Counted from the stretch's first letter, positions 11,306 to 56,268 are shown. The stretch: DNA of 64,000 nucleotides from a virus (IMGVR_UViG_3300037502_002379:50-64049); one strand, 5' to 3'. The notes: generated from the sequence alone by a model not told the origin. Translations and numbers: made by a program.

Positions 11306-11700
11306 ATATTCTTATACGGATTGTTTGGTAATGTTGTTGCGTCAATGGCTTCGTTGTCTTCGATTAGACCGAAAAGGTCAAAGCTGCGTGAGAGTAGGTA
11401 GGCAGCACCCATTGCTATTTCTAGCAACTTTAAAGGAAACAAATGACCTTTTATAATTTCATCTATAGTATCTATTCGGACTGAATCCGAATCTTCTATG
11501 CTATTAGGATTTACAAGTTTGTAAAACTCAAGCTTTTCTTCCTCTGTCATATCCGACAACGGGCGAAGGATTGGCTTGTGTGGATTGTCTGACTGTTTCC
11601 AATTTGAAGGAAAGTGTGACGGCTTTAACTCGTAAATCTGATTATTGTAATCCATACACTTGCAGCCTAAGTACAAATGCGCTACGTCTTTGAATTTCAT
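11302..11700 (-). CDS. conserved Bacteroidetes-phage hypothetical protein
   Basis: KPILRPLSDMT and FDLFGLI motifs. Confidence 0.65.
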   Translation of the reverse strand: MKFKDVAHLYLGCKCMDYNNQIYELKPSHFPSNWKQSDNPHKPILRPLSDMTEEEKLEFYKLVNPNSIEDSDSVRIDTIDEIIKGHLFPLKLLEIAMGAAYLLSRSFDLFGLIEDNEAIDATTLPNNPYKNI

Positions 11701-11801
11701 AATAAAAATATTGCTAGTGAAAAAATAATAATCCCTCCGAATAACAGCACGCAGCCCGAATAGAACAGCGCGGTGTCAAGTTGTTTGTAGTTGATGTTCA
11801 T
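11697..11801 (-). CDS. 34-aa membrane peptide
   Basis: MNINYKQLDTALFYSGCVLLFGGIIIFSLAIFLL*; ATGA overlap with the next gene. Confidence 0.45.
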   Translation of the reverse strand: MNINYKQLDTALFYSGCVLLFGGIIIFSLAIFLL

Positions 11802-11805
11802 GTTA

Positions 11806-12627
11806 TTAAATAATTATTTTCTTAATAGGGCTTGCAGTGCCTAAAATATCTACATCTGCTATCTTTATATACCCCGCAGTTGTATTTATATTTTTATGAC
11901 CTGCAATTTTTTGTACCGTTCTTAAATCAACGCCATCTATTACCATTTGAGTTAAACAACTGTGTCGTAAAGAGTGTGATGATATTTTCTTTTTAAAACC
12001 TAATTTATTTGCAATAGACTTAACAAGTGTCTGTATGCTTTTTTCTGAATACTTACCACCTTTAGCGCCCTCAAATAAATATGTTTTTGTTTGGTAAATT
12101 TTCCAATATTCCCTTAATAATTTTACAATGGCAGAATCAAGCATCACTATCCTGTCAACTTTTCCTTTCCCATTTTTTACTTGTATTTTATTATTAGAAG
12201 TATCTATGTCTCTAATTTTTAAATTTACAACCTCTCCTACTCTAAGGGCACATGAATACATTATACAAATAATAGCTTTATGCTTAATATTTTTTGTGTA
12301 ATTAACCATTCGCTGAAACTCATCAACTGACAATACATCTGGTTGCTTTTGCTCAATTTTAGGTCGAGGCAATATTTTATTATTAAAATTCTTATCTAAA
12401 CATAACCTGTAATAACACTTAAAGGCATTTATTACAGCCATTCTTGTTGATGCAGAATAATGAGTTTTACTTAGCAAGTACATACGCAAATCATTTTCGG
12501 ATATATCTTTAGCATCTTTATTAAAATGTTTTGAAACATTAGATACTATTGATAAATAACTCCTTGAAGTTTTGCCACTAAAGTTTTTTAGAAACATCAA
12601 TTCTTTAAAATCTTGCAATTTATCCAT
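11806..12627 (-). CDS. tyrosine recombinase, putative integron-like cassette integrase
   Basis: SAM-like N-terminal domain; catalytic R (LRVGE), K (GKGK), HxxR (HSLRH), H (GH) and Y (TTAGY) all present; lies 53 bp from the first cassette boundary. Confidence 0.9.
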   Translation of the reverse strand: MDKLQDFKELMFLKNFSGKTSRSYLSIVSNVSKHFNKDAKDISENDLRMYLLSKTHYSASTRMAVINAFKCYYRLCLDKNFNNKILPRPKIEQKQPDVLSVDEFQRMVNYTKNIKHKAIICIMYSCALRVGEVVNLKIRDIDTSNNKIQVKNGKGKVDRIVMLDSAIVKLLREYWKIYQTKTYLFEGAKGGKYSEKSIQTLVKSIANKLGFKKKISSHSLRHSCLTQMVIDGVDLRTVQKIAGHKNINTTAGYIKIADVDILGTASPIKKIII

Positions 12628-12639
12628 AATGCAAAGATG

Positions 12640-12688
12640 CTAATTATTTTTGATATACGCAATATTGGACTATATAATAGTTACCTGC
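12640..12688 (+). other. attI-like primary recombination site (TATATAATAG|TTACCTGC)
   Basis: First G|TT junction next to the integrase start; no attC hairpin precedes it. Confidence 0.65.
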
Positions 12689-12693
12689 AAGCA

Positions 12694-13656
12694 CTACGGA
12701 CGTTCTTCGATTAAGCATTTCGGTTCAGTTTTAAATAATTTTTTTTCCTCCACTTTTAAAAAAGAAAAGATATGTTCAACTATTCCAACAGTCCATCCAT
12801 CACCAATCAAATTGCCCGCCTGTGCCTTGTTTAAATTTCTTGTATATCCTTCGGGTATATTATGAAGCCTTTCAAGTTCCTTTTGTGTGCAATACCTCAC
12901 TCCCTTACTTTCGTCCATTGTTTCGTCTGTATAAATGATTGTAGTCATTCCAGTAGTTGCGTAACGGTGCAACATATATCTTTGGTTTGCATCTCGGCCA
13001 CAACTTGTATTTAAACAAGTATGTTTCTTTTTATCAGAATATCCGTATTCCAAAACATCATTTAACAGTATCTTTTTATCTCTCGGTTGTGGTATTGCAC
13101 ACTTTCTGTTTCCAAATAAATCAAAAGTTTCAGGCCCGATATTAGTCCAAAACAATCTATCTCTCAATGCACCACTCACTCTACTTCCACAAAGTCTTAC
13201 AGGTTCAGTTCCTAATAATTCAGATATTGTATTGTAGCCTAAATCATCCATTATCACATTTTCAAGCAAATAGTAATCGGGTTTAGTTTCTTCGAGTAAT
13301 CTTATGTATTCATAAAATAACATTGATTTCATTCCTTTTAATCCATCCCTTACGCTATTTGCCCTACTAAAATCTTGGCACGGGCTACCTCCAATCAATA
13401 AATGTATTTTTGGCAAATCTTGGCCTTTCACTTTTGTAACATCTCCAATCTGAATAGTATCAGGAAAATTATCCATTGTGCATTGTATGGCGTGTTTCTT
13501 TATTTCGGCTGCATAATATCGTGTAGGTTTCAATCCTACATTATTAAGGGCAATTTGTCCGCAACTCATACCATCAAATAATGATAATACGTTAAATTCT
13601 TCGGCAAAGCCGTTTTTGCCATCCCTCAAAAAATTATTTAAAACTGTTTCTTTCAT
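12694..13656 (-). CDS. C5-cytosine DNA methyltransferase (cassette 1 cargo)
   Basis: LSLFDG (motif I), GGSPCQ (motif IV), LENV (motif VI), R.RLFW and IGDGW. Confidence 0.9.
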   Translation of the reverse strand: MKETVLNNFLRDGKNGFAEEFNVLSLFDGMSCGQIALNNVGLKPTRYYAAEIKKHAIQCTMDNFPDTIQIGDVTKVKGQDLPKIHLLIGGSPCQDFSRANSVRDGLKGMKSMLFYEYIRLLEETKPDYYLLENVIMDDLGYNTISELLGTEPVRLCGSRVSGALRDRLFWTNIGPETFDLFGNRKCAIPQPRDKKILLNDVLEYGYSDKKKHTCLNTSCGRDANQRYMLHRYATTGMTTIIYTDETMDESKGVRYCTQKELERLHNIPEGYTRNLNKAQAGNLIGDGWTVGIVEHIFSFLKVEEKKLFKTEPKCLIEERP

Positions 13657-13689
13657 CTAATTAGCTTTATCGTTTAATAAACCGTGCCA

Positions 13690-13785
13690 GCAGGTAACAA
13701 GGTATTTGCAAAATTGCCCATCAACATTGTGCTTAATTTGAAGTATCTGCAAGGGCAACTTCGCAAATACCCAAACGTTATGCCC
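13690..13785 (+). repeat. attC-like site of cassette 1
   Basis: GCAGGTAAC ... GGTATTTGCAAAATTGCCC / GGGCAACTTCGCAAATACC stem ... GTTATGCCC. Confidence 0.85.
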
Positions 13786-13789
13786 AATG

Positions 13790-14185
13790 CTAAGACAGCG
13801 TTCTGCCAAAACATGTGACTTTTTGACCATCTTCAAAATGACTTGCTTTTTCTAAAAGTTCATTCATAATGTCATTGATATTAAAATTATGTGAGAAACC
13901 CATCTCAATTTCATAGTTACCGTTTCGGTCAATAACACAACCCATTGCTTTTTCAACGCTTTCGGTTAATAGTTCTCGATAAAAATCTTTATCTATATTC
14001 AAATCCTTTACAATAATGTGTGTTGTGAATTTTCTACTTTGTATTCCACACATTGAAACTTCTGATGGGTTTCCATTTCCTAATTGAAACTGACCAAACA
14101 TAAGCAAGTCATTATCATCACACCAATGGTAATCCTTTTCGTTTACATAACCTTTCGGTCTTGAATCTGCTACAAATACTTTCAT
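13790..14185 (-). CDS. hypothetical protein (cassette 2 cargo)
   Basis: Single ORF filling cassette 13777-14345. Confidence 0.75.
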   Translation of the reverse strand: MKVFVADSRPKGYVNEKDYHWCDDNDLLMFGQFQLGNGNPSEVSMCGIQSRKFTTHIIVKDLNIDKDFYRELLTESVEKAMGCVIDRNGNYEIEMGFSHNFNINDIMNELLEKASHFEDGQKVTCFGRTLS

Positions 14186-14218
14186 TTTTCTGTTTTAAAA
14201 TTGTTCAAAAAAAGCACT

Positions 14219-14354
14219 GGGCATAACACGTGTTTTGCGTTATGGTGGCTGACGTGCTGAAATCAACCGCAGTAATTCTATTTGGCTTTAGTGCTATGCC
14301 GACAGTTAGTGCTACTAATCCGCCACAAACGCAAAGCACCTGAACGTTAGGCAC
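14219..14354 (+). repeat. attC-like site of cassette 2
   Basis: GGGCATAAC ... GTGTTTTGCGTT / AACGCAAAGCAC stem ... GTTAGGCAC. Confidence 0.85.
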
Positions 14355-14670
14355 AATATGCTTTCCTGTATCGCTCAATTATGGTATCGTTTTCTGCAAA
14401 TGGTAATGCTATCGGGCATGGGTGGTCAAAGTCAAAAAAACTTTCCTCTCCACATTTACTACACTTGTAATGAACAACATTCCTTTCTTCAACATACACA
14501 TCTCTGATAAATGATAAGTTTTTTTGCCCTTCATCATCTGTATCGCCACACATTTCATTTTTACATTTGCAGTAAACGAATGTTCTTTGGTTCTTCTTCC
14601 TAATCCGCATACTGCTCCTAACATGGTATTTATGCCATGCCGTATTTAGTGCTTTAATCAAGTTTGTCAT
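14347..14670 (-). CDS. Cys-rich (Zn-ribbon) hypothetical protein (cassette 3 cargo)
   Basis: CKC...C and CSKC motifs; the TAA stop lies inside the GTTA junction; likely ATG at 14670. Confidence 0.65.
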   Translation of the reverse strand: MTNLIKALNTAWHKYHVRSSMRIRKKNQRTFVYCKCKNEMCGDTDDEGQKNLSFIRDVYVEERNVVHYKCSKCGEESFFDFDHPCPIALPFAENDTIIERYRKAYCA

Positions 14671-14738
14671 TCTATTTAGGTTTAAATTGTTAACCAACTT
14701 TTGTCTTTCAAATCGGCACGGACATAAATACTCGTCCC

Positions 14739-14953
14739 GTTATAAGCAAGTGGCTGTGGTTAAAGTTCAACATTCCGAACTCCTCCTGTGGTTATCGGAG
14801 GCAGTCTTTGAACTTTACCACTCCACAGCCACCAGACTTATAACATGGGCTAAAACGCAATAGGCACGGAGTACCTTTCAGCATTTGTGATAGCATTGAA
14901 CCACTTGTCCCGTTTAGTTCTGTATGCACACCTACTGCGTTTAGCCCAATTCC
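14739..14953. other. ORF-less hairpin cassette (cassette 4)
   Basis: GTTATAAGCAAGTGGCTGTGG pairs with CCACAGCCACCAGACTTATAAC; inner AAAGTTCAA/TTGAACTTT and TCCGA/TCGGA pairs. Confidence 0.75.
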
Positions 14954-14962
14954 GTTATGCTC
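14837..14962 (+). repeat. attC-like site of cassette 4
   Basis: CTTATAAC ... GGGCTAAAACGCAATAGG / CCTACTGCGTTTAGCCC ... GTTATGCTC. Confidence 0.85.
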
Positions 14963-15140
14963 CATTGCTACGTGTCTGCTTCGATTTGAAATTTGTGGAA
15001 GTTTTTTGTTCTTTTTTCTCCCCACGCACAAGAAAAATCAAATGGTCTTGAATAAAGTTTTTAAGGTCTTTATCTGCGTCAATAGCCATCTTCTTTAAGT
15101 CTTTGACTATTTCTTCGGGTATGTCAATTAGCTTTTTCAT
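14955..15140 (-). CDS. ribbon-helix-helix-like regulator (cassette 5)
   Basis: MKKLIDIPEEIVKDLKKMAI...LKNFIQDHL has the beta-alpha-alpha pattern. Confidence 0.65.
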   Translation of the reverse strand: MKKLIDIPEEIVKDLKKMAIDADKDLKNFIQDHLIFLVRGEKKEQKTSTNFKSKQTRSNGA

Positions 15141-15143
15141 AGA

Positions 15144-15248
15144 TTATTCAATACCCATACCATCGGATTTTTTGTAAATTATAATTCCAAAAATTACCCA
15201 AACTACTATTACAAATATAAGGGCTTGTCCTATTGTTATATCGCACAT
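15144..15248 (-). CDS. 34-aa single-TM peptide (cassette 5)
   Basis: Read by hand: MCDITIGQALIFVIVVWVIFGIIIYKKSDGMGIE*. Confidence 0.5.
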   Translation of the reverse strand: MCDITIGQALIFVIVVWVIFGIIIYKKSDGMGIE

Positions 15249-15484
15249 AATTTCCTTTTTGCTTCAAATAAATCAAACATTTGTTCACCAGTTAGCGATA
15301 ATGTAATTCTACCACCATCAGTGTAAGTGCCTGTAATTTCATCTTCTTCCATTGCATCATAAACTTTAGAAAGTATCATTGCAATAGTTTCTAATTCATC
15401 CGCAGTTAATTTTTGACTGCGTTTTTTTGGCTGAGCGTCTAATGTGCTGTTGCCAATATTTCTTTCGTTAATTCTATATCCCAT
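15236..15484 (-). CDS. hypothetical protein (cassette 5)
   Basis: ORF 15236..15538; ATG at 15484 lies downstream of the internal promoter TATATTTG at 15508-15515. Confidence 0.6.
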   Translation of the reverse strand: MGYRINERNIGNSTLDAQPKKRSQKLTADELETIAMILSKVYDAMEEDEITGTYTDGGRITLSLTGEQMFDLFEAKRKLCAI

Positions 15485-15626
15485 TTTATGTGGTTTTAAA
15501 TTATATGCAAATATATGCCGTATATATGACATACGCAAGAAAAAAGTAAAATATTTTTTGCCTACCCATAAAAAAAGAACAAAAACCTTGCTCCTATTGA
15601 AGTTTACTGCTAAAAATCCGCAACGA

Positions 15627-15726
15627 GAGCATAACAGCGGTTTTGCGTCAGGCGGGGTGCGGTGCTAACTTTGAACATTCGTGCTAATAAACCCGCCCGA
15701 ACGCAAAGCCGCAAAACGTTATGTGC
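15627..15726 (+). repeat. attC-like site of cassette 5
   Basis: GAGCATAAC ... GCGGTTTTGCGT.AGGCGGG / CCCGCCC..ACGCAAAGCCGC ... GTTATGTGC. Confidence 0.85.
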
Positions 15727-15745
15727 AATTTTCTTTTTCATTTTT

Positions 15746-16693
15746 TTAGCCAACGCTCAAATGATTTAATGATTTTTTGAATGGGTTATACTCATAATCT
15801 TCCCAACTGCACGAATTGAAGATTATCCTATTGTTTACATATCTTGTGTATGCTTTTTGATACCTATCATCTTTATTGTATGGCATTACAAAAGGCTTAC
15901 ATCCCAATTTCCTTAAAAATTCAACTCTGTAATAATCTTCTTCGGGAGAAGTATCAAACCCAATTAAAACAAAGAATTGCATATGTTCGCAAGGTATTCC
16001 CCATTTATTACAGCGTTCAATACCTCTAATTATTACCTTTTCATCTTTGAATTGGTCCCACGCAAATGTCAAGTATCGTTTGTTGAATTTTGAATTGTAA
16101 TACTTCACTTTTGCTAATGCTTCTGCTTGTCTATCTGAAATAATGCGAATATTCAAACCTTGAACAAAGCAAACTTTCAAATCAAGTTCTGCAATTCTAT
16201 TCAAATTAGCTTCCCAATTTGTGCCACCAAAAAAATCATTATCCAAAAGCATCAAGTTTTTACCGCCTGATGGGTTAGTGATAAGTTCGTCAATGGTATT
16301 GTAATTGTATGGTCTGCCTTCTTTTTTTGGCACACAACAAAAATCACATTTAAAACGGCATCCTTTCATTGAAAATCCATAATGAAAAGGAGTATTTGGA
16401 TAAATCTCCCAATCCATTGGAGCATTTTCAATTTCAGCAGGTAGTTTGTTATAAAAATCAATTCCAGTTCCACCAATCACCATATTTTCGGGTATTTGTG
16501 GCATTTCGCTAAAATTAAAAATCTTACTTGCATAAATCTTATCGTATTGACTTGCAAACAATATTCCTTCATACCATTCGACTGTATCGCCAATAGATTT
16601 ATGGTAAGCCGATATTTTCATAAGTGCAATATTTGGAAATTGTACTCCTTGATAATCCGTTCCATCAACTTGATATATTGCTATTCGTGCCAT
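15746..16693 (-). CDS. radical SAM protein (cassette 6 cargo)
   Basis: CxxxCxxC motif GCRFKCDFC; PNIALMKIS, GGTG and LLDNDF motifs. Confidence 0.85.
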   Translation of the reverse strand: MARIAIYQVDGTDYQGVQFPNIALMKISAYHKSIGDTVEWYEGILFASQYDKIYASKIFNFSEMPQIPENMVIGGTGIDFYNKLPAEIENAPMDWEIYPNTPFHYGFSMKGCRFKCDFCCVPKKEGRPYNYNTIDELITNPSGGKNLMLLDNDFFGGTNWEANLNRIAELDLKVCFVQGLNIRIISDRQAEALAKVKYYNSKFNKRYLTFAWDQFKDEKVIIRGIERCNKWGIPCEHMQFFVLIGFDTSPEEDYYRVEFLRKLGCKPFVMPYNKDDRYQKAYTRYVNNRIIFNSCSWEDYEYNPFKKSLNHLSVG

Positions 16694-16746
16694 AAATGAT
16701 TTAATGATTTAATTGCCCACGCACAAAAAATGAAAAAGAAAACAGA

Positions 16747-16879
16747 CACATAACAGCACATTGCCAAAAGTGGCGATGCGGTGCTAAAATCAAGTGTAGT
16801 GCTTCTAATTATCATTTGTGCTATATTCAAAATTTGTACTTCTAATTCGCCACCATCGGCAATCTGCAACCCGTTATAT
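16747..16879 (+). repeat. attC-like site of cassette 6 (distal end of the array)
   Basis: CACATAAC ... ATTGCC....GTGGCGA / TCGCCAC....GGCAAT ... GTTATAT; the G|TTA overlaps the stop of ORF 16874..17080. Confidence 0.8.
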
Positions 16880-17080
16880 CCCAAACAATTTATCAATATT
16901 CTGCTCGGTGCTTTCCGTTGCAAGTCCGTAGTTAATCGCGTTGTGGATAACAGGTCTGCTGCGAAATGTTTGCTCGGCTATCCAAACATAAGTACCGATA
17001 CTCGGTCTTAGCTTTTGCCACTTAGCCACTTTTTGCGGGTCAACTTGGCGAACCTTTTCAATGTACGTTGATTGTTTCAT
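16874..17080 (-). CDS. hypothetical protein
   Basis: ORF track; resident gene upstream of the array. Confidence 0.55.
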   Translation of the reverse strand: MKQSTYIEKVRQVDPQKVAKWQKLRPSIGTYVWIAEQTFRSRPVIHNAINYGLATESTEQNIDKLFGI

Positions 17081-17081
17081 T

Positions 17082-17399
17082 TTACTGTTTGATTTTTGCT
17101 AAAATATTCATTGCCATCAATACGCATTCATCAGAAGTATTATCGCTTTCAGTTACCTCCAATAGCGAATTTACTAGCAAATCGCGCTGAGAAAGCAATT
17201 CTGACGGCATCAGTCCGCATTTTTGCGCGGTGTTGCCTGCATCTGCAATTAAGCAGGCATTTTGTTTTGCAGCTATAATGCTTACATTATTGCTTGTTTG
17301 GGTAACACAAATTGTAGGTATTTTACCAAACTCTGCATTGCATACTACAGCCAATTCATTTTCAAAAGCAATTCTCCATTTCCCTTTTGTTATTTCCAT
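17082..17399 (-). CDS. hypothetical phage protein
   Basis: TKGKW and NACLIADA motifs. Confidence 0.65.
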   Translation of the reverse strand: MEITKGKWRIAFENELAVVCNAEFGKIPTICVTQTSNNVSIIAAKQNACLIADAGNTAQKCGLMPSELLSQRDLLVNSLLEVTESDNTSDECVLMAMNILAKIKQ

Positions 17400-17417
17400 T
17401 TGTTATTATTTACGCAG

Positions 17418-17425
17418 CAAAGGTA
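17418..17425 (-). promoter_or_regulatory. TAnnTTTG promoter (TACCTTTG) facing the cassette array
   Basis: Consensus match about 20 nt upstream of the ORF start at 17399. Confidence 0.65.
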
Positions 17426-17459
17426 CAAACTGTTTTGACAATTACAAAAAATAATTGTT

Positions 17460-17490
17460 AAAAGAAAAGGCAGCCTCATGACTGCCCCAA
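17460..17490 (-). terminator. intrinsic terminator
   Basis: GGCAGTCATGAGGCTGCC followed by TTTTCTTTT on the minus strand. Confidence 0.65.
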
Positions 17491-17534
17491 GCGATTGCGC
17501 TCCACCTCCGCTAGTTACGGATTGGTGCAAAAAT

Positions 17535-17563
17535 AAAAAAGCCCCTGAATAATCAGAGGCTTT
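17535..17563 (-). terminator. intrinsic terminator
   Basis: AAAGCCTCTGATTATTCAGGGGCTTTTTT on the minus strand. Confidence 0.75.
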
Positions 17564-17654
17564 CGCGTTAAACGCACCGGAAAATAAACGACCTCACCTA
17601 GTACGCGATAACTAAGCGCGTGAGGTACTATTGCTGCAAAGATATAAAACTTTT

Positions 17655-18269
17655 CTATTTCCCAAACACACGCCAATAAGCCCCAACCATGTGCGCTTGC
17701 CCTCGAATGTCATAGCCATAAAAGCCATTAAAGGACTTATACGAAACAGCAACGGAAGGAGCTGCAACAAAGTCTGTAGCGGTGTTGTTTACGCCTACAA
17801 TAGCGCCTATGTACACGCTAGGCAAAGGCTTTTTGACTTTGGTTATTATCTCTCTGATTTCGGGTTTTAGGTTCGCGTGTTGCAGCTTAAAATCTAACAG
17901 CGTGCCCAATACCGTAGTCGTGTAGATTATTTTGTAATTGTTAGCCTCGCGCAAGGTGTCTGAGTAAGTACAAGTGTCAGGCAGTTGCGTAACAATTTCT
18001 TTGGCTATTATTCGTATCGTATCGCATGGTATCGTATCAATTCGGCTAATCGCTTCTACTTTTGCTTTGTTCGGTTTTTTGCTGATTACTTTCGGATGTG
18101 TTACGGCTATTTGTTTAAGTGTGGTATCTCGGTAAATAGTATCATGTACAACACTCACTACTTCGCCACAATTGCGCTTGCCGTAATGATAGCCAGCGCA
18201 ACCGCCAACACATGAGAACAGCACCACAATAGCAGCGAATACAAGCAATAATATTTGGTTTGGTTTCAT
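17655..18269 (-). CDS. membrane/lipoprotein, candidate spanin
   Basis: N-terminal hydrophobic segment with Cys, DT-rich linker, beta-strand C-terminus; downstream of the lysis genes. Confidence 0.5.
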   Translation of the reverse strand: MKPNQILLLVFAAIVVLFSCVGGCAGYHYGKRNCGEVVSVVHDTIYRDTTLKQIAVTHPKVISKKPNKAKVEAISRIDTIPCDTIRIIAKEIVTQLPDTCTYSDTLREANNYKIIYTTTVLGTLLDFKLQHANLKPEIREIITKVKKPLPSVYIGAIVGVNNTATDFVAAPSVAVSYKSFNGFYGYDIRGQAHMVGAYWRVFGK

Positions 18270-18478
18270 TAGTTTTGATTGGTTTCTTCGTCTTCAAAGA
18301 TAATTTCTTCGTCTATTTCGATAGCCTCAACTAGCTTCAATGACTTTTTGAATAGTCCAGGCGCGTCAAGCTGCACAGCCTTAGTTAGCCCCTCATCGTA
18401 ATTTACAGCATACACGGTAATTTGCACCTCATTAGCGCTAATCGGTTCGGTGTATGCAAATGTTATCTGCCACATCAT
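18269..18478 (-). CDS. hypothetical protein
   Basis: ORF track. Confidence 0.5.
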   Translation of the reverse strand: MMWQITFAYTEPISANEVQITVYAVNYDEGLTKAVQLDAPGLFKKSLKLVEAIEIDEEIIFEDEETNQN

Positions 18479-18683
18479 ATTTTTCAATCATTTTATTTAG
18501 ATACCATTGTGCTTTTTTCAAGTCCTCTAGCCCGTTTTTTTGCTCACATCTCCAAATATACTTAATTATATTAGCCGTGCATACTGCCTGCAATCCCTTC
18601 TTTTCGGCTGTAGCTGCTTCTATCGCATCAATACACTCGATTTTGCCTTGCTTGTAATGCGAAGGGTTTATTTTATCGTTCAT
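18438..18683 (-). CDS. DUF3310 family protein
   Basis: NPSHY..GKIECIDAI, NIIKYIWR and EDLKKAQWYL motifs. Confidence 0.9.
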   Translation of the reverse strand: MNDKINPSHYKQGKIECIDAIEAATAEKKGLQAVCTANIIKYIWRCEQKNGLEDLKKAQWYLNKMIEKYDVADNICIHRTD

Positions 18684-24558: not shown

Positions 24559-27500
24559 TTAGTCTGTTAGTTCGGTTGGTTTATTAGTTTCTTTAGCTTT
24601 ATTTTCTACTGCCGCTTTTATATCATAATAAGAAGGAAGCCCACCACCCATAGTCATAAGTAAAATGTGAAGCGCATTTACTCCCGTATTAGCTATTTGC
24701 CATAACTCCTTTTCTTCATCGGTTACATTTTCGCCATTGGCAACTTTTTTTGATATGTCGGCTATATCCATAACCGTACCACTTGCATTAGTAACACCTT
24801 CTGAAATTACACCCAAAGCAGGTATTAAATCTGCTTCGTATTTCTTAATAGCTTCATTTGCAGCAAACTTATTTTTACTTGTAATTTTATCAATATCAGG
24901 CGACAACCCATAAAAGTTCTCCTTGGCAATATCTCTTATTTTCTTTTTAACTGCCTCGTCTTTTGTGTTGTAAGCAGCAATCGCCAATGCTGATTTTGAT
25001 ATTGTACTGCCTATTGCTCCATACTTAGCAGAAGCGATGTTTATTGCTTGCCCCGCTACCGTTTTTGATAAACCTTCTGTCGTAAACTTATCTTCAAGTT
25101 GCTTCTCTTGTTTCTTTTCTTCTTCCTCTCCTTTTATTTGTGCAGCAATAGTTCTAACCACTTGCCCCATGTAAGCATACACAAGCATATTTATTGATAC
25201 CGCCAAAGGCTTTCTCAAAGAACGCAATGCGCCTATACCCTCACCTTCTTTCCATCGTTCTGCAACCTCCTTAAATCCGTTCCAAAATTCTTTTTGCTCT
25301 CTGTATGGATAACCACCCATGAACGATATTATCTGCCCAGTAGGCGTATCAGCGTCTATGTTTTTAATATCCTTGCCAAATAAAGGAATTGTTTTACCGC
25401 TAAAGGGAATTTTAATCTCTCGCCTTGCGCCAAATCTACTCCCGCTACCTATAATTTTCTGCACTTCGTTTGACGCAACTGCATTAGCATCTTTTATGGC
25501 TTGCAAATTATCTGAACGATATTTCTCATCACTTCTAAACTTACTTATATCAAAATCATTCCCTGTTGCAGCCTTAAATTCATCTCTGAAAATAGGCATA
25601 TAAACAGTTTTCATCATTGTCATTTCGGGAGTACCTCCAAGATAATAAGCCGCTTTTTGCATAGGCGACATCGACTTAATTTCACCTTCTGTTAATTGGA
25701 ACTGTTGGTTTACATTAAGTCTTTCTGCAAGTGGGCTACCCGTAAATTCAAGAATATCCTTCATGCCACCACGCTTAAACAATTCTATATATCCCAATGG
25801 TTCACCACCTCTTGTTGGCATAGATGATAATGTTGCAACAAATTCTTTAACAGTCTTTAGTGGGTTTAGCTGTACTAATGTAGAACGCAAATTTTGCAGC
25901 TTTCTTATCGGGTCTGATTTTAAAGTATTGCCGTACTGCCTAACCAATGATTCCTTTACATCTTTAGCCACAACAGCCATCACATCGCTTGTTTTCTTAT
26001 TCGTTGCGGCATTGATAGTTCGGTTAACTTCCTGCATTGCCTTAGTCAATTCGTAATCTCTATTGGCATTTGAAATAGCTTTTTCAGCAGTTTCAACAAT
26101 ATCATAATTCAATGCTTCGACTTCTTGACTTGTTCTTGATTCTCCAAACGGGCTTTTAATAGAAATTCTATTTGTTTTGCTATCAATAGCCACATCATAA
26201 GTATCGTCATCAATAGTGGCATCTCCATCCCTTCTTATTCTTGGGGCATAAAATGGCTGTGCATTAAATTCTTTACCACGCATTTCGTTTGACGCTTTTT
26301 GCTTATCGGCATTAACATCTTCTGCGTACTTAAACCACTTAGCAAGTGCAGCACCTTCCTCTTTTGTAAGATACTTGCCATCGTTTGCCATAAAACTATC
26401 GTACAACTCTTTTGGAGAAAGTGATTTACCCGATTCTAATTTATCACCTACCAATGATTCCCACGCCTTTAATACTTCTTTAGCTTCTTTTTCGTCTTTA
26501 AATCTTGACTGCAACTTTTTATCAAACACATCTTTAACCCAATCTCTATTCCCAATATTTTCAACCTTTGAAAATTTAGGATTGTATTGCGCCATATACT
26601 CTTGTAGCATATTCGCCACTATACCCATACGCAAACGACTTTGTTTGTTCTGATTGCCAAATATGCTTTTCAACTCATTTACTCCTAACTGTGTTTGCCT
26701 ATTAGCTTTTTCAATAGCTGAAATTAAAGGGTCGTAAATATACTTAGTCAAAGCCCCCGCTTTCTTTCTACCAAGTCCTAATTCACCCTCCCTAAAAGCA
26801 ACTTCTTCTTTTGCAAGTTCATTTAGTTTGGCATTTACATTTTCAACAGAAGGAGATTTAGCTTCAACTTGCCTTGCAACAGCTTCTGCATTTCGTAAAG
26901 CATTGGCTTCGCTAACTATATCTCTAAGCCTATAATGGTCAACAAATCCATCTGCTACGTTCTGTAAAATATCAGCTAAATCGGAAAGCATTTCAGGTGG
27001 CAACCTCTTTAAATCAGCAGGTTTAATAGCCGAAAATTCAAACAGCAATTCTTTGTCCGTAGGAGATTTTATATCCGCAACTGCATCTTTGTATTCTTGT
27101 GTTGATTGTACCGCCAAAGCATCCTTAATCAAGTCAGTCTTTAACCTATCCACATCAGCACCAAACTTAGCATCAAATGCTTTTCTATCTTTTGCCAAAG
27201 CATCAAGCAAATCATTTCTTTCTTGCTCAGTTATAGTGCCATCTTCAAACAACTGATTAACACGCTTATTAAAAGCACGAATGTTTTTAAGCAATTCCTT
27301 GTAATCTTCAATGGTATCAATTTTCGTTGATAATGCTTTTTTCAAAGCATCTTCTGCTTCATTAAATGTTTTTACGTTTTCAAATGGTTTTGGCTGCCTT
27401 TTAAACTGCGTAATGTCATAAAACATTTCTTGCATCTTCTTGTAATTCGGCACACCATTAGCTAAGTCATTTAACGCTGCTATATAATCAGGCAATTTAT

Positions 27501-30500
27501 CGGAAGGTATATCTTCGGGCTTTATAGTAGCAAACTCTTTTACCGCGCTATTAAATGATGTGTGATTTCTGCGCCTTGCTCTTTTCTGCAAGTCAGACAC
27601 CTTCTGCATTTCCTCCACAAAATTCGCATCATCAATTACTTTTTGCGCGTAGTCTAAAAACTTATCTAATTGCGCCTCATTTTTTACCGAAGCTGCACGA
27701 TTTATTAATGCTTTTATCTGTGTAGGCTTTAGCGTTTTTGCTATCTTGTTGTTATCAAGAAAATCTTTAATGCGTTGAGCAAACTCAAATTGTTCTTTTT
27801 TCGCACCCCTAAAACCCTCCCTTGCCGCTTTGACTTCAAGGCGAATTTGGTCTTTAAGGGCAGCTTTTTCATCAACTTCAACCTTTTTTCTTTCGGGCTT
27901 GAACGATTTATCCACTTCTCTTTTAGAAACAGATTTGCCACGTTCTGCATTATATTCACTTTGCGCTTCACTAAAAACTTCTACCAACGCAACATCATCG
28001 GCAGCAACATTAAATCGCTTGTTAAATCGTTCTTTAAATTCTTGAAAATTTAATCCACCTTCTTCTGCTTCAAACTGTCTTTTAGCATAATCTTTCCACT
28101 TGCTAAAGTTTTCTGTTTCTTTTTTAACATTTGCATTAGCTGCATCCCATGCTTTTTTTATAGCATATGTTAATTCTTCGCCTATCTCTTTAGCAAAATC
28201 AGCCGCATTTTTTACACCTTTTCGTATATATAAATATGCCAACTCTGTGTATAAATCAAGATTTTCAAAGTCTAAGCCGCTATAAAGTTTACCCTTTTTT
28301 CTTTCTTTTAGTTCAGCCAATTTTTTCGCTATCCTATCATCAATAGTTTCTGCACTCTCTACTACGGGTTCTTGCTTTGCTTTTTCTGCTGCTCGCTCTG
28401 CTTCTTGCTGTCTTGCATCACGCTCTTGAATAGCTTTACGGTTAGCATCCTCCGCGCCTTCCACAACTTGTTCTCCTTCGATTGCGGCTTTTGCAAGCTC
28501 TCTTTTTCTTTGTTCATCTGTTAAATTGTTTAAGTATTCATCGTATTCTTTAGCTAAAGCATCCGCATCTTTATCTGATATAGGCTTTACATTTATATCA
28601 TCAATAGCTTCTTGCAAATTTTTGGATTCTTGGTAGAATCGCTCCATCCCTTCTTCATCAAGTTCATATCCAAGTATAGCCTCTGCATCTGCTAATAATT
28701 CCGCACGCCTTGAAGCTGTATTGTTTTCACCGTAAAAAGTACCTTCTTTTTTTGTTTTTCCCAAACCAACACCATTAGGATATTTAACAATAAAATCATA
28801 AATATCTTGTTCTGTTATTTCAATGCCTACAAGGTCGCTCATTTCCTTTGCAAGCTGGTCTATGGTTGTTTTTATTTTAGCATTAGCTTTAGCAAAATAT
28901 GATTTCCTAATTGAATCATTTACATAGTTCCTATCACCAACCGCATTGAAACTTTCTTCTGTTATTCTGCCCATGTTATCAGCAATAACAGATTCTTTGT
29001 AATCAGAAACATTATCAGCAAACTCGCCTTTCACCATATCGGCTTGCATCAACTTTTCAGACGCTCGCCTAATTCTTACTTCTTCATCGGCAAGTGTTTG
29101 TTTTAATACTTCATCTTTAGTGGCATCAATTTGTTCTTGCTTAATTGTAACAATCGGAGGCGCGGTTATACTTGGTGCTTCTATGGGTTGTTTAGCTACT
29201 ACTTCTCCCCCTTCCGCTTGAAGTATTCCACCACCGCTAACCTCTGTTGCGCTTCCTTCTTGGATAGGTTCGACTTGGATAGGTTCTTGCCTTGTTCCGA
29301 CTTCACTTGATACCCCTGACTTGTTTTGACTATCATTTTGTTTATTTAAAAGTTCCTCTACCGCTTTTACTAATTCAGGATTACTGCCGTCTGCTTTGGC
29401 TTTATGGTAGGCTTCGGAGATAGCTTTACTATTTTTTGATTGTGGTATATACGTTGACCTTTCAACAACAACTTCTCCATTTGAATTTCTATATGAATTT
29501 TCAAATAAGTCAGAGGCATCCCTTGTAGCCAATTTAGCTGTTTCTGTTCCTAAGTGCTTAGAGTTAAATAATTTTACGGCAGAAGGATTGTTTTCAAATT
29601 CGTTTTTATCATTTCTAAAGTATTGTTGTAGCTCTATTTCAGTATTACCTTTTTTGTCTATTTTTCTTTCAACTACCCAATACTCGTCTTCATTTACAAC
29701 TATCCTATCGCCCGTCTGAGCGTTTGCAATTAACCATTCGCCTAATGCTTTAGGAGATTGTTCAGTTTTACTTTGTTCGCCAGCTTTATTAAAACCTTCT
29801 GATATTTTTTGTGTAATACCTAATGTTTCAGATGTAACGTCTGTACCTTCTACAATTTCTTCGCCAATTACTTTAGTTTTAGTTTCTGTGGCTGCTGTTT
29901 TTTTCTTTTTTGTTAGCTCATCCAACGCCTTAGCCGTTGCTTCTACGTTTGCTAATGCAGGATTTTGTTCAGGTATAACTTGACTTTCGGGTTGTGTTTG
30001 TAAAGGTGTGGCTTGATTTTCTACATCGGCAACGGTTGCTTCTGCCCCAACTCCACTATCCTCAACAACACTTTCTGATACTGTTTCTGCAACTCCTTCT
30101 TCTGCTTTTGTGGTTGCTTCTGTTGCAGTCTGTTGTATAGGTTCTCCAACTGCTGTTGTAGTTGCTGCATCGGTTTCTTTTTTCGGTTCTACTTCAAATG
30201 TTCGCGGTGCTTCTAAGAACTGTTTCTGTGCTGCATCCCACATTCTAACATCGCCTTTACGAGTAATGTACAACTGCCCGTCTTTTAATTCAGATGTATT
30301 CTCCCCTGCGCTGTCCATGTATTTCGGTGGGAGTGGAATAGCTATTGACTTGTCTAATTGGTCAATCTGCATCTGCACAATAGGCTTAACGGCATCGCTA
30401 ACTTTTTCCATTTCGGATTCAAGTTTCTGACGCTGTTCAATGATTTCAGCCATATCGTTCTGCTCGTCCAAAGTCATATTACTTGGCATAGCATTTAAGG

Positions 30501-31647
30501 CTTTCTTTCTGTTGATAACATCTTGTGTTATTTCGGCTGCCTCTTGTTCGGTTATTGCGCCTTGCTTAACGGCTTCTTGGGCTGCGGCTTGCGACACCTC
30601 AATAGGTTGTGTAGCGGCAATAGTAACTGCATCTTTTTTATCGGCTTTGTCAACGCCTTTCGTGTATAGTTTGCCTATCGTGCTTTTGGATATGTAATTA
30701 ATAACGGGTTGCGATGCTTGTGTGCCTGCTGTAAATAATAATTCGCCTGCAACATTCTCCGCAACACCACTTGTCAACTCACGTTTCAATCCTTGCTTTT
30801 GCGCTTCTACGTTGGTTGCTAACTGCGCACCACCTGCCGTTCCTGCATCTATTGTAGCATCCAACGCAAACTCAATACCTTTCTTTAGCAACTTACTACC
30901 CGACTTAAACGGTATGCTTGCTACTCTTGTTATTGGTAACGCACCCATTGCGCCCTCTGCCACACCGCCTATGCCGCCAGTTTGCGCTACTTGCTGTGCT
31001 ATGTCAATGGCTTGGTCGGGTGTTTTGCCTTCTTCAATGGCTTGGTAATACGCTTCTTTAAACGCACCCGTAAATCCTTGTCGGTATCCATCTCCCATAG
31101 CCACGCCCGTTGCAGCTACAACACTCGCAATAGGTGATGCAGGTGCGGCTGCTATACCCGCACCGATTGACTTTAACATACCTATGCCACTACCTCCTAT
31201 AATCTCTGCTCCCGTTTGAAATATGTTTTGTTCTTGCTGTGGTAATTGCTCCGACCGTCTTTTTTCAAGCAATTCAATCTTGCGTTCTTTCGGAACGTTT
31301 GATGCCAAAATATCGTAGTCAATGCTATTGTCAGTGTATGATTTAATACCACGCATAAAAGCTGATTTGACCTTTGTTGCTTCGGACGGCTTTTCACCAA
31401 CAACCTCTACTTCTTTCACCATGTACCCTTCGGGCGTAGGCGTTACTATCTTTTCGTCAACAGTTGTCGTAGGTGTCGCAGAAGGCTCTGTACGCTGCTG
31501 CAAAGGCTGCGATTGTTCGTTGCCACCATTTTTTTTTTCAATGGCTACTCCTCCAAACTCTGCAAACGGGTCGTCTGTTTGTTGTGTAGGTTTTGTTTCT
31601 ATTGCACTACCTCCAAATTCCGCAAATGGGTCTTTATCTTCTTGCAT
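24559..31647 (-). CDS. large (2362 aa) ejection/internal virion protein
   Basis: N-terminal DPFAEFGG repeats, A/G-rich hydrophobic segment, long helical body; third gene of a podovirus-type ejection block. Confidence 0.7.
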   Translation of the reverse strand: MQEDKDPFAEFGGSAIETKPTQQTDDPFAEFGGVAIEKKNGGNEQSQPLQQRTEPSATPTTTVDEKIVTPTPEGYMVKEVEVVGEKPSEATKVKSAFMRGIKSYTDNSIDYDILASNVPKERKIELLEKRRSEQLPQQEQNIFQTGAEIIGGSGIGMLKSIGAGIAAAPASPIASVVAATGVAMGDGYRQGFTGAFKEAYYQAIEEGKTPDQAIDIAQQVAQTGGIGGVAEGAMGALPITRVASIPFKSGSKLLKKGIEFALDATIDAGTAGGAQLATNVEAQKQGLKRELTSGVAENVAGELLFTAGTQASQPVINYISKSTIGKLYTKGVDKADKKDAVTIAATQPIEVSQAAAQEAVKQGAITEQEAAEITQDVINRKKALNAMPSNMTLDEQNDMAEIIEQRQKLESEMEKVSDAVKPIVQMQIDQLDKSIAIPLPPKYMDSAGENTSELKDGQLYITRKGDVRMWDAAQKQFLEAPRTFEVEPKKETDAATTTAVGEPIQQTATEATTKAEEGVAETVSESVVEDSGVGAEATVADVENQATPLQTQPESQVIPEQNPALANVEATAKALDELTKKKKTAATETKTKVIGEEIVEGTDVTSETLGITQKISEGFNKAGEQSKTEQSPKALGEWLIANAQTGDRIVVNEDEYWVVERKIDKKGNTEIELQQYFRNDKNEFENNPSAVKLFNSKHLGTETAKLATRDASDLFENSYRNSNGEVVVERSTYIPQSKNSKAISEAYHKAKADGSNPELVKAVEELLNKQNDSQNKSGVSSEVGTRQEPIQVEPIQEGSATEVSGGGILQAEGGEVVAKQPIEAPSITAPPIVTIKQEQIDATKDEVLKQTLADEEVRIRRASEKLMQADMVKGEFADNVSDYKESVIADNMGRITEESFNAVGDRNYVNDSIRKSYFAKANAKIKTTIDQLAKEMSDLVGIEITEQDIYDFIVKYPNGVGLGKTKKEGTFYGENNTASRRAELLADAEAILGYELDEEGMERFYQESKNLQEAIDDINVKPISDKDADALAKEYDEYLNNLTDEQRKRELAKAAIEGEQVVEGAEDANRKAIQERDARQQEAERAAEKAKQEPVVESAETIDDRIAKKLAELKERKKGKLYSGLDFENLDLYTELAYLYIRKGVKNAADFAKEIGEELTYAIKKAWDAANANVKKETENFSKWKDYAKRQFEAEEGGLNFQEFKERFNKRFNVAADDVALVEVFSEAQSEYNAERGKSVSKREVDKSFKPERKKVEVDEKAALKDQIRLEVKAAREGFRGAKKEQFEFAQRIKDFLDNNKIAKTLKPTQIKALINRAASVKNEAQLDKFLDYAQKVIDDANFVEEMQKVSDLQKRARRRNHTSFNSAVKEFATIKPEDIPSDKLPDYIAALNDLANGVPNYKKMQEMFYDITQFKRQPKPFENVKTFNEAEDALKKALSTKIDTIEDYKELLKNIRAFNKRVNQLFEDGTITEQERNDLLDALAKDRKAFDAKFGADVDRLKTDLIKDALAVQSTQEYKDAVADIKSPTDKELLFEFSAIKPADLKRLPPEMLSDLADILQNVADGFVDHYRLRDIVSEANALRNAEAVARQVEAKSPSVENVNAKLNELAKEEVAFREGELGLGRKKAGALTKYIYDPLISAIEKANRQTQLGVNELKSIFGNQNKQSRLRMGIVANMLQEYMAQYNPKFSKVENIGNRDWVKDVFDKKLQSRFKDEKEAKEVLKAWESLVGDKLESGKSLSPKELYDSFMANDGKYLTKEEGAALAKWFKYAEDVNADKQKASNEMRGKEFNAQPFYAPRIRRDGDATIDDDTYDVAIDSKTNRISIKSPFGESRTSQEVEALNYDIVETAEKAISNANRDYELTKAMQEVNRTINAATNKKTSDVMAVVAKDVKESLVRQYGNTLKSDPIRKLQNLRSTLVQLNPLKTVKEFVATLSSMPTRGGEPLGYIELFKRGGMKDILEFTGSPLAERLNVNQQFQLTEGEIKSMSPMQKAAYYLGGTPEMTMMKTVYMPIFRDEFKAATGNDFDISKFRSDEKYRSDNLQAIKDANAVASNEVQKIIGSGSRFGARREIKIPFSGKTIPLFGKDIKNIDADTPTGQIISFMGGYPYREQKEFWNGFKEVAERWKEGEGIGALRSLRKPLAVSINMLVYAYMGQVVRTIAAQIKGEEEEKKQEKQLEDKFTTEGLSKTVAGQAINIASAKYGAIGSTISKSALAIAAYNTKDEAVKKKIRDIAKENFYGLSPDIDKITSKNKFAANEAIKKYEADLIPALGVISEGVTNASGTVMDIADISKKVANGENVTDEEKELWQIANTGVNALHILLMTMGGGLPSYYDIKAAVENKAKETNKPTELTD

Positions 31648-41365: not shown

Positions 41366-42283
41366 ATGCGAAGATATACTGAAGAGCAAATTAACAGTAG
41401 TGAAGTTTGCAATATGTACAAAAAAGGATTTACATCTAGGCAAATAGCTAAACATTTTAATTGTGACAAAGGGTGTATTTTAAAAAGATTAAAAGAAAAT
41501 AATATTACGGCAAGAGGAAATGAATTAGCTAACAGAAAGCATTTTTTTAATTACAGATACTTAGAAAAAATTGATTCCGAAGAAAAGGCTTACATTCTTG
41601 GATTTATAATGGCTGACGGTTGTGTTGATAGGCTAATGACAAGATTGATTATAAATTTAGCTCATATAGATATTGACGTGCTAAAATTTATATCAAAGTG
41701 TTTTTCTTATGATAGCTCTTTGGTTTTTAAAAAATCAGTCTTAAACAGAATGCCGCAATATTCGTTAAGTTTAAATAGCAAAGAGTTATGTATTGATTTG
41801 AAAAATCATGGAGTTTTGCCTATGAAATCATATAATGCAACCTATCCCAAAACAATACCTAAACATCTAAACAAAGATTTTATAAGTGGGCTGTTTGATG
41901 GCGATGGTAGCGTTTCTCACAATCCATCTAAAAAAACAACTAATTGCTCTATTGCTGGAACTCCTGAAATAATTATAGAATGTCAAAAAATATTATTAGA
42001 ACAATATAACTTTTCAACATCTATTGAATATAAAAAAACAAAAAATTCTACAACTGCTATTTTAAGATTTGGTGGAAGAAGAAAATCTTTAGTGTTTTAT
42101 GAAACTATTTACAAAAGCCAATTTTTTAGATTAACAAGGAAAAACGATAAGTTTATACAATCTATGAGTGCAGATGTAAACCCGTATGGAATAAAAAAAT
42201 GTAAGATTTGCGATTTAAAACACGAATCAAAAGGTTATTGTAGAAAGCATTTATATCAATACCAAAAAAGCATTCGCAAATAA
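41366..42283 (+). CDS. free-standing double-motif LAGLIDADG homing endonuclease with N-terminal HTH
   Basis: AYILGFIMADG and FISGLFDGDG motifs; AT-rich; opposite strand to its neighbours. Confidence 0.85.
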   Translation: MRRYTEEQINSSEVCNMYKKGFTSRQIAKHFNCDKGCILKRLKENNITARGNELANRKHFFNYRYLEKIDSEEKAYILGFIMADGCVDRLMTRLIINLAHIDIDVLKFISKCFSYDSSLVFKKSVLNRMPQYSLSLNSKELCIDLKNHGVLPMKSYNATYPKTIPKHLNKDFISGLFDGDGSVSHNPSKKTTNCSIAGTPEIIIECQKILLEQYNFSTSIEYKKTKNSTTAILRFGGRRKSLVFYETIYKSQFFRLTRKNDKFIQSMSADVNPYGIKKCKICDLKHESKGYCRKHLYQYQKSIRK

Positions 42284-56031: not shown

Positions 56032-56268
56032 GTTATGTGGCATTAAGTAAACCATTGAATATAATACCCATCAAAACCTTTTACTATTTTACCACATTTA
56101 ATCCAACCTTCAAAAGGTTCATACTTCCAAGCATACCCGTTTTCTATCTGTATCATTTTTTAAATTTTAACGGCACATAACAATGGTGTTGCATAATAAC
56201 CCCATCAAGTGTCGTGGTTAATTTTAAGTTTATACTAAGAACTACTACACAAAGCCATAAGCCATTAA
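56032..56268. mobile_element. degenerate solitary cassette with a 37-aa ORF and a decayed attC-like site
   Basis: GTTATGTGGCATTAA pairs with TTAACGGCACATAAC; the downstream sequence is homologous to the attC at 13690; the terminal GTT reads ATT. Confidence 0.65.

Follow-up and report, generated by a model that had tools for sequence, protein, structure and literature searches.

In canonical integrons the cassettes are transcribed away from intI, from the promoter Pc near attI, and the polarity and crossover of their hairpins are reportedly those described by MacDonald in 2006 and by Bouvier in 2005. In the "inverted" integrons of Spirochaetes, Chlorobi and Planctomycetes the integrase is a true IntI, and it is the integrase gene that is turned round with respect to attI, while attC keeps its place 3' of each gene; CTX phage uses Xer recombination at dif on a hairpin of one phage strand, carried out by host XerC/XerD at chromosomal dif. 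Here we analyse a 64,000-nucleotide stretch of virus DNA (IMGVR_UViG_3300037502_002379:50-64049, "the window" below) in which six gene cassettes stand in a row beside a gene for an Xer-like tyrosine recombinase. We think it probable that these make up a phage-borne gene-cassette platform that is integron-like in its working and is run by this simple recombinase. It is a real, recurrent and mobile cassette system, which is integron-like in function and site geometry, lies outside the integron family by its enzyme and has its cargo reversed. Comparison of related loci demonstrates the structure and boundaries of the cassettes, their turnover between relatives, their uniform polarity and their linkage to the recombinase gene.

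In common with integrons, the locus has an insertion site shortly before the start of a tyrosine recombinase gene, promoter-poor cassettes arrayed on one side only, imperfect hairpins with AAC/GTT cores, and cassette ends that pair mutually, as for an integrated circle. Relative to the recombinase gene and attI, the hairpin polarity is also that of the canonical integron, as is the crossover, at G|TT of the strand that does not encode the recombinase; only the cargo strand is flipped. An attI next to and upstream of the recombinase gene, with accumulation on one side, was found as well: the core is present at 13 loci, the arrays lie on that side, and among the Polaribacter phages named Freya (below) the site is empty in one genome and filled in others. 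Unlike in integrons, the recombinase is without the IntI insert and nearer to XerA/XerC/XerD, the cargo is on the opposite strand with the hairpin preceding its gene (58 of 61 oriented open reading frames (ORFs) are directed toward the recombinase), an outward Pc serving the cargo is absent, and the hairpin has a 4-nucleotide (nt) one-sided bulge, fixed G.T pairs and 15-nt end repeats. In the inverted integrons integrase and cassettes are co-directional, as here, but the geometry of recombinase and attI is canonical here and it is the cargo that is flipped. CTX and the dif modules of Acinetobacter plasmids likewise use Xer-type enzymes without the IntI insert, but they move whole phages or plasmid modules and have no cassette array beside a dedicated recombinase gene. 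Secondary-site insertion has been reported for integrons too (10.1101/2022.09.11.507474). The host here is a phage of Bacteroidota, a phylum in which integrons are described as rare (10.1101/2022.02.28.482270).

Qi et al. (2023) reported attC clusters without integrase (CALINs) in virulent phages including Polaribacter phage P12002L (PMC9892861), and there, as here, phages of marine Flavobacteriia have hairpins that separate small genes and orphan methylases. In their account of these clusters, in contrast to ours, the sites are taken as integron attC of bacterial origin, no phage recombinase is linked to them, and "divergent directions" are noted with the ownership of sites by genes left unresolved (PMC9892861). 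P12002L has no annotated recombinase; its sites probably belong to the family described here, to judge from the site at 30008–30056, which has the same spacer asymmetry relative to the genes. The stem-loops called PeSL in T4-type phages also bound small accessory phage genes that are gained and lost as units among close relatives, but they are promoter-terminator motifs thought to recombine by homology, and as described in these reports are without a dedicated recombinase, an invariant core or an attI-like site (PMC2839356, PMC4122927). The boundaries in the present array lack the pairing of promoter and terminator stem-loop that marks PeSL. A full-text literature search found no description of an Xer-like recombinase with such arrays or with flipped cargo.

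Organization of the cassette array

The array occupies 12681–16873, and its junctions, all of the form G|TTA, lie at 12680 (the first, G12680|T12681), 13777, 14346, 14739, 14954, 15718 and 16873 (Table 1). Each unit consists of minus-strand cargo between matched inverted repeats (7 to 9 of 9 bases match in the window) plus a hairpin. Hairpin sites were found by a TAAC...GTTA pattern combined with a duplex-energy scan; those of the window read TAAC...GTTA on the plus strand, with 0–1 nt after TAAC and 4–5 nt before GTTA, and the scan of the whole window gave seven strong sites of one polarity, six of them within the array. An earlier note on this DNA had listed five array hairpins, all of which are present, and had missed the sixth, at 14619–14742. 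Its statement that every cargo ORF and the recombinase itself are on the minus strand agrees with our ORF calls, which place all ORFs of this stretch there; its further description of these genes as pointing toward attI is right for the cargo and wrong for the recombinase gene, which points away from attI.

Two more cassettes stand singly, both located between the terminase and portal genes. The one at 53452–54311 sits after the TAA stop of an epimerase gene (54312–55223), and its N6/N4 methylase is 40% identical to the methylase of an array cassette in a related locus, L010. The junction of the other, degenerate one is A|TTA at 56264, at the stop of a gene of 502 amino acids (aa). That the two arrived by insertion is argued from their structure.

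Cassette 4 has no ORF, and the arms of its cargo hairpin resemble those of a hairpin-only unit next to attI in L010 (L010:9821–9921), a locus with just 37% identity in the recombinase. Cassette 5 has the make-up of a small operon: behind a promoter motif of its own it encodes two proteins, of 83 aa and 61 aa, and between them a hydrophobic peptide of 34 aa.

Recurrence in related loci

Among 619 candidates, 217 are relatives of the recombinase at E up to 0.001, and most of these are 273–275 aa long; a 91% identical one is borne by a contig of 66,950 bases. The 32 non-redundant loci hold 93 hairpin sites within 9 kb upstream of the recombinase gene, 79 of one polarity, 5 of the other and 9 unclear. 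Where both flanks were present (24 loci), we counted 56 sites in 114,013 nt upstream against 5 in 188,496 nt downstream, an upstream density about 18 times the downstream one; when 114 kb of related sequence was shuffled by mononucleotides, zero sites of that polarity came up. The flanking 9-mers of 78 cassette intervals in 25 arrays match at all nine positions in 51 and at seven or more in 67. The longest ORF of at least 60 aa has the sense of the recombinase gene in 58 of these intervals and the opposite sense in 3, the remaining 17 having none; for ORFs of at least 100 aa the count is 33 to 0, and 16 of the 78 intervals are without an ORF of at least 35 aa. Cargo orientation in homologous arrays, which the earlier note had proposed as a check on its reading, is thus not random. 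The terminase of the window has no match in five other phages that bear this recombinase family, and the module therefore sits in unrelated backbones. Scans of viral contigs with the recombinase or the portal protein singly found no close relative, and a search of a genome collection yielded just two loci of relevance, each of which duplicates a viral locus in the set.

Structure of the hairpin sites

In 44 aligned sites of the common class of about 126 nt, TAAC and GTT are invariant, the final A is present in 39 and a G follows TAAC in 41; a T precedes GTTA, and one G.T pair inside the stem is invariant. Compensatory changes were seen in 15 of the 21 predicted stem pairs. The repeats at the cassette ends pair over 15 nt, past the nine positions used for selection, positions 12–15 being Watson-Crick in 43–52 of 60 cases and position 11 a G.T pair in 47 of 60 (the G.T pair at T-N6-TAAC). 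All conserved G.T pairs are borne by the coding strand, and the hairpin is stabler on that strand in 88 of 103 sites (DNA parameters, sites detected on either strand). This points to the folded coding strand as the active form, for which covariation, fixed G.T pairs and stability asymmetry speak indirectly.

Such hairpins might instead be regulatory stem-loops, whether terminators, processing signals or motifs linked to promoters, with the modules shuffled by short-homology recombination as at the PeSL of T4-type phages, and with a lysogeny integrase or dimer-resolution enzyme nearby that has nothing to do with them. The favoured fold is indeed on the transcribed strand and RNA tolerates G.T pairs; T-rich runs follow some of the hairpins, the hairpin arms fall into families of sequence between which homologous exchange would be conceivable, and cargo does occur with different hairpins. 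Bartlau et al. see these recombinase genes as markers of a temperate lifestyle (PMC8776804). We nonetheless consider this explanation unlikely: the breakpoints fall at an invariant 3–4 nt core and not anywhere in the shared arms, the same core recurs in a conserved box beside the recombinase gene at 13 loci with unrelated backbones, the sites are clustered 18-fold on one side of that gene, and the covariation of the stems leaves low sequence homology between sites. In addition, the recombinase gene of a Mesonia prophage lies well inside the predicted prophage (with approximate boundaries) and not at its end.

Another possibility is recombination of double-stranded DNA by an Xer-type enzyme, in which TAAC with its arm would be a duplex site, hairpin bodies and cargo would alternate between such sites, and no folded DNA would take part. 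The dif modules of Acinetobacter plasmids are proposed to work in this manner, and there too inverted repeats flank the cargo; other metagenomes, moreover, show breaks on both sides of the hairpin. The enzyme is also Xer-like and without the helix held to enable single-strand recombination in IntI (PMC7790495). This appears quite unlikely, since the arms vary widely between sites with the pairing kept, which fits recognition of a structure and not of a duplex sequence; the conserved G.T pairs and the 88:13 strand asymmetry would be meaningless in duplex DNA; and inverted duplex sites should invert the cargo, yet its orientation is 58:3.

Assignment of hairpins to genes

Because the matched repeats flank the cargo under either reading of ownership, sequence symmetry alone is indecisive as to which gene a hairpin travels with. 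Breakpoint comparisons confirm that it belongs to the gene downstream of it, as the earlier note had proposed in placing an attC-like hairpin upstream of each gene, and four kinds of observation bear this out: array ends, single cassettes, shared cassettes and metagenome contigs. The array starts with a hairpin right after the stop of the 68-aa backbone gene and ends with cargo, repeat and attI, where no hairpin is present. In 21 of the 25 arrays the last GTTA repeat has a partner ending in AAC 20–200 nt before the recombinase gene, with 9 of 9 positions matching in 18 arrays and 8 of 9 in 3 (the partner being the best-scoring match chosen by script, with no sense-polarity hairpin found beyond it). 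In the two single cassettes, too, the hairpin is upstream of the cargo.

Near-identical cassettes found elsewhere also break at TAAC, with the hairpin 5' of the ORF. Loci L010 and L035 have two units in common at 98.6–99.5% identity, in different order and with different neighbours, and each of these begins directly after TAAC, continues through hairpin and ORF and ends at the next TAAC. Contigs of other metagenomes (X2 and X4) tell the same for the window's own cassettes. An X2 contig has the radical-SAM cargo of cassette 6 together with the hairpin in front of it (15702–16876, 35 differences), diverges past the GTTA at 16876 and retains only 16 nt of the hairpin behind the cargo; an X4 contig has the same cargo from 15718, preceded by 499 unlike letters. 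A second X2 contig keeps both ends of cassette 5, with 540 unrelated nt in the middle instead of 379, and diverges within 1 nt left of 14954. At cassette 1, whose end repeats match at 9 of 9 positions, an X2 contig diverges just left of 12680.

We also considered ownership of the hairpin by the upstream gene, which would make the units canonical cassettes with attI at the far end (by analogy with the extrahelical bases of integrons), and this was ruled out by the array ends, the single cassettes and the breakpoints of shared cassettes.

Turnover of cassettes between relatives

Synteny between the window and locus L045, whose recombinase is 92% identical, extends from about 22979 down to 2851, but the alignment breaks at window positions 16872 and about 12690; between these L045 carries seven other cassettes, with nothing in common between the two arrays. 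The stop of its 68-aa gene is likewise the TAA of the first TAAC. The clearest case comes from ten co-isolated genomes of Polaribacter phage Freya (GenBank MT732463-MT732472, loci L104-L113), whose lengths differ by whole blocks at one AAC; five of these isolates were compared, and their recombinase is only 34% identical to that of the window. Freya_1 has the empty site, TTGTTTACAAC|ACCCC..., 48 nt before the recombinase gene, whereas in Freya_2, _6, _8 and _10 precisely this AAC is filled with small co-directional genes, 842 to 4942 bases in all; the insertions are composed of blocks of 842, 902, 472 and 3198 bases, every one of which ends in TTGTTnnnAAC. The block common to all filled isolates is farthest from the recombinase gene and the variable blocks adjoin the gene; with five isolates, this order fits entry at the recombinase-proximal site, and deletions could yield the same pattern. 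In the passages concerned, Bartlau et al. take the recombinase gene solely as a marker of temperate lifestyle (PMC8776804). As cultured phages whose only differences are in this array, the Freya isolates are a possible bench model.

The recombinase

The window recombinase scores 188 bits with the NCBIfam model for XerA (cutoff 220) and 151 bits each with those for XerC (cutoff 335) and XerD (cutoff 330), all under the curated cutoffs, and its best solved relatives are the XerA chains 5hxy and 4a8e. In the alignment with IntI4 (2a3v) its residues 175–193 (19 residues) face chain residues 181–242 (62 residues), which span the IntI-specific insert, so that about 43 residues are missing at that position. 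Because it is without this insert, the feature that defines the IntI family, it is not the integron integrase that the earlier note took it for. According to Smyshlyaev et al., the insert is not fully conserved within the integron-like subgroup (PMC8138268), and the recombinase could therefore still descend from IntI.

A canonical integron (IntI, attI and attC) carried by a phage, with the cargo strand misread, would have in its favour that the TAAC/GTTA cores match the R boxes RYYYAAC/GTTRRRY. At least one site of the present type occurs between two methylase genes of P12002L, one of the phages in which searches of the IntegronFinder type have called attC clusters, and IntI1 is reported to have recombined five of six tested phage attC, one of them from P12002L (PMC9892861). 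We judge it very improbable: with the integron-integrase models TIGR02249 and PRK15417 the recombinase reaches 142 bits (in two stretches) against a cutoff of 265 and 90 bits against a cutoff of 435, the residues of the IntI4 insert are missing, and both the cargo strand and the order of hairpin and gene are the reverse of those in integron cassettes.

A single acquired helix is held to have given integron integrases their capacity for single-strand recombination (PMC7790495). If the platform works as proposed, hairpin-site cassettes without this I2 helix would be another route to single-strand recombination and a natural comparison.

Entry site, stop codons and promoters

At the 13 loci with the attI-like core, a variable repeat ending in AAC stands 50–90 nt before the start codon of the recombinase gene and is followed by TAnTATAT. 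A promoter-like motif precedes the recombinase ATG in the window (CATCTTTG) and has the full consensus in loci L002 and L007; its 5-nt spacing is that of several structural genes. The recombinase probably has its own promoter, with cassettes entering just upstream of it.

The earlier note had also proposed that cassettes target stop codons. At 14346, 14954, 16873, 54311 and 56264 the junction TTA serves, as it said, as TAA stop for the ORF on its right, which is on the minus strand (left ends at 14347, 14955, 16874, 54312 and 56265, respectively), whereas no stop coincides with the other four (12680, 13777, 14739 and 15718). A TAA stop is used at each of the three backbone junctions of the window, but only 6 of the 25 related arrays have a stop codon as their first TAAC, with an ORF end at most 40 nt before it in 8 more (many of these arrays run off the contig, and L045 has the window's stop site). 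The minus strand has 56 backbone genes; TAA is the stop of 38, and 10 end in TAAC, 2 of these 10 being occupied; the third backbone junction is TAA-T and adjoins a decayed hairpin. In 11 of 58 cargo ORFs the stop codon is the TAA within the TAAC that follows. In our own reading the requirement would be an AAC core (usually TAA|C), which a TAA stop followed by C would offer harmlessly, insertion restoring the stop; selection against gene-disrupting insertions could give the same picture as targeting.

The Bacteroidota-type promoter motif TAnnTTTG has 46 minus-strand copies in the window, 16 of them in the 6.6% that is non-coding, and the non-coding copies are mostly 5–26 nt 5' of a start codon. 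The nearest consensus copy upstream of the array is TACCTTTG at 17418–17425, just after two terminator-like hairpins, in agreement with the distal promoter of the earlier note; cassette 5, alone among the six, and the recombinase gene have motifs of their own in addition. The motifs suggest that the array is read from the promoter at 17418–17425, and the cargo would be expressed from this phage operon or from its own promoters. Inside attI a plus-strand motif, TATTTTTG (12645–12652), and a sigma-70-like TTGATA-17-TATAAT (12650–12678) are directed into the array, against the sense of the cargo. Both overlap the conserved attI box and may have arisen by chance, and an antisense start is possible. 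A terminator scanner made only two calls in the array hairpins, both weak with six pairs (cassettes 2 and 4). In the metatranscriptome X16 contigs contain pieces of cassette 6 and hairpins, and we draw nothing from them, as strand and starts are unreadable and DNA carry-over is possible.

Immediately upstream on the minus strand, at 17467–17644, are two ORF-less units of about 90 and 60 nt, with motifs at 17637–17644 and 17528–17535 followed by strong terminator-like hairpins at 17564–17537 and 17488–17467. They may be small RNAs; Rfam gave a sub-threshold match only. Over 11500–18500 Rfam returned just two matches, both sub-threshold and at chance level.

A model of cassette movement

Read on the coding (minus) strand, a cassette consists of C, G and about 3 nt, a stem of 16–19 bp with its loop, then T, GTTA and an end repeat of about 11 nt, then the cargo, and finally the matching repeat and TAA. 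The substrate would be the coding strand, folded as single-stranded DNA, with cutting and joining inside the AAC core of TAAC, and the linkage of sites and gene makes the recombinase the probable author of the cut. New cassettes would enter next to the recombinase gene, at the attI-like core 50–60 nt upstream of its start codon, and occasionally at other TAAC sites, mainly TAA stop codons in the tightly packed phage genome. Insertion would re-create TAAC on both sides, and therefore the upstream gene would keep its stop. The cargo is coded on the strand with the more stable hairpin; being on the opposite strand to that of integron cargo, it therefore runs toward the recombinase gene and would ride the operon from 17418–17425 or bring its own promoter. 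The stop-codon and promoter-distance mechanisms of the earlier note are plausible proposals. The flipped cargo would also test the standard idea that the newest cassette is best expressed, as the newest would here be last in the operon.

A broader interpretation, for and against which we see the balance as about even, is that this is a second class of integron, deeply diverged or independently evolved, in which an Xer-type recombinase without the IntI helix acts on folded single-stranded DNA hairpins, phages of Bacteroidota keep an exchangeable bank of anti-restriction and anti-defence genes, and cargo on the recombinogenic strand rides the phage operons, with entry at the promoter-distal end.

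Several points weigh against the proposed platform. Sequence comparison places the cut only within AAC, and the exact bond would be a matter of analogy. The percentage of paired cells in the hairpin alignment (89.6%, against 66% in shuffles and about 40% with the partner slid) is partly circular because the site detector selects stems, which is not so for the fixed register, the invariant G.T pairs and the length class. The G.T pairs would equally suit a role in RNA, and the favoured strand is the transcribed sense strand; the recombinase could instead serve lysogeny or dimer resolution. For the two single cassettes, a tblastn search with the 359-aa and 502-aa neighbours against 50,697 phage records did not find a relative with an empty site. 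The Freya block boundaries are AAC but show no TAAC...GTTA hairpins at the detection threshold. Finally, cargo like that of cassettes 1 and 5 stands next to different hairpins in X2 and in another metagenome, X3, and a third unit of L010 and L035 stops at GTT, not AAC, before a flipped hairpin; pairs of hairpin and cargo are therefore sometimes reassorted.

Cargo

The cassettes of the window encode a C5 methylase, an N6/N4 methylase, a radical-SAM protein, a DUF7715 protein and small ORFs. Related loci yielded 53 cargo proteins, of which 12 have a Pfam match and 41 have none; the 12 are six N6/N4 methylases, one Dam, one C5 methylase, a weak Methyltransf_11, an RNA ligase, a YopX and a Tad8 Thoeris inhibitor. 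These names suggest that the cassettes are a bank of anti-restriction and anti-defence genes, which would make them a ready source of unknown anti-defence genes. Bacterial integrons are reported to bank anti-phage defences (10.1101/2024.07.02.601686), and the phage arrays would be the virus-side counterpart.

A homologue of Tad8 (Pfam 4e-19), a protein known to inhibit type II Thoeris defence, is encoded at L058:1021–1260, in the cassette next to attI.

Table 1. Coordinates of the array, its neighbours and the single cassettes in the window.
Feature	Position	Strand	Content
Xer-like tyrosine recombinase gene	11806–12627	-	273 aa; Pfam Phage_integrase 1.5e-39 and SAM-like N-domain
attI-like site	12628–12680	-	core AAC (G12680|T12681 on +); conserved TAnTATAT box; L045 homology to about 12690
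Promoter-like motif CATCTTTG	12632–12639	-	5 nt before recombinase ATG
Cassette 1	12681–13777	-	C5 DNA methyltransferase 12694–13656 (PF00145 1.2e-28); hairpin 13695–13780
Cassette 2	13778–14346	-	DUF7715/glyoxalase-like protein 13790–14185; hairpin 14224–14349; X2 contig covers 13785–14245
Cassette 3	14347–14739	-	87-aa Cys-rich ORF 14347–14610, stop is the junction TAA; hairpin 14619–14742
Cassette 4	14740–14954	-	no ORF; cargo is a 106-nt perfect-ended hairpin 14739–14844, then hairpin site 14841–14957
Cassette 5	14955–15718	-	own TATATTTG motif 15508–15515; ORFs of 83 aa (15236–15487), 34 aa (15144–15248) and 61 aa (14955–15140); hairpin 15632–15721
Cassette 6	15719–16873	-	radical-SAM-domain protein 15746–16693 (phrog_9298 3e-71); hairpin 16751–16876
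Backbone 68-aa gene	16874–17080	-	TAA stop is the distal array junction; conserved in L045 (6453–6659)
TACCTTTG, Bacteroidota-type -7 promoter motif	17418–17425	-	nearest upstream of array; 19 nt before ATG of 105-aa gene
Two terminator-like hairpins	17467–17564	-	close upstream transcription units
Single cassette	53452–54311	-	N6/N4 DNA methyltransferase 53528–54184; hairpin 54245–54314; end repeats GTTATACGC / GCGTATAAC
Degenerate single cassette	56033–56264	-	37-aa ORF 56043–56156; end repeats 56032–56041 and 56172–56181; weak hairpin

Other features of the window

The window is nearly all of a viral contig of 64,049 bases that is rated about 55% complete, and almost all of its genes are on the minus strand. 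The backbone genes include those for a primase/helicase, an endolysin, a holin, the portal protein, the large terminase and very large virion proteins. Named records with relatives of the recombinase are Polaribacter and Cellulophaga phages, a Mesonia genome and a Bacteroidales metagenome-assembled genome, and a host among the Bacteroidota is likely.

Some structural genes have the TAnnTTTG motif only 5–8 nt before their ATG (24533, 34317, 39178, 41309 and 57781, minus strand), which suggests leaderless or near-leaderless transcripts. There are two very large ORFs, at 24559–31647 and 34337–39172 (2362 and 1611 aa, respectively), and the 1611-aa one matches virion structural protein families in its last 400 residues only. 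A lone plus-strand endonuclease gene (phrog_4645, 41366–42283) lies within the minus-strand virion module and may be a homing-type insertion.

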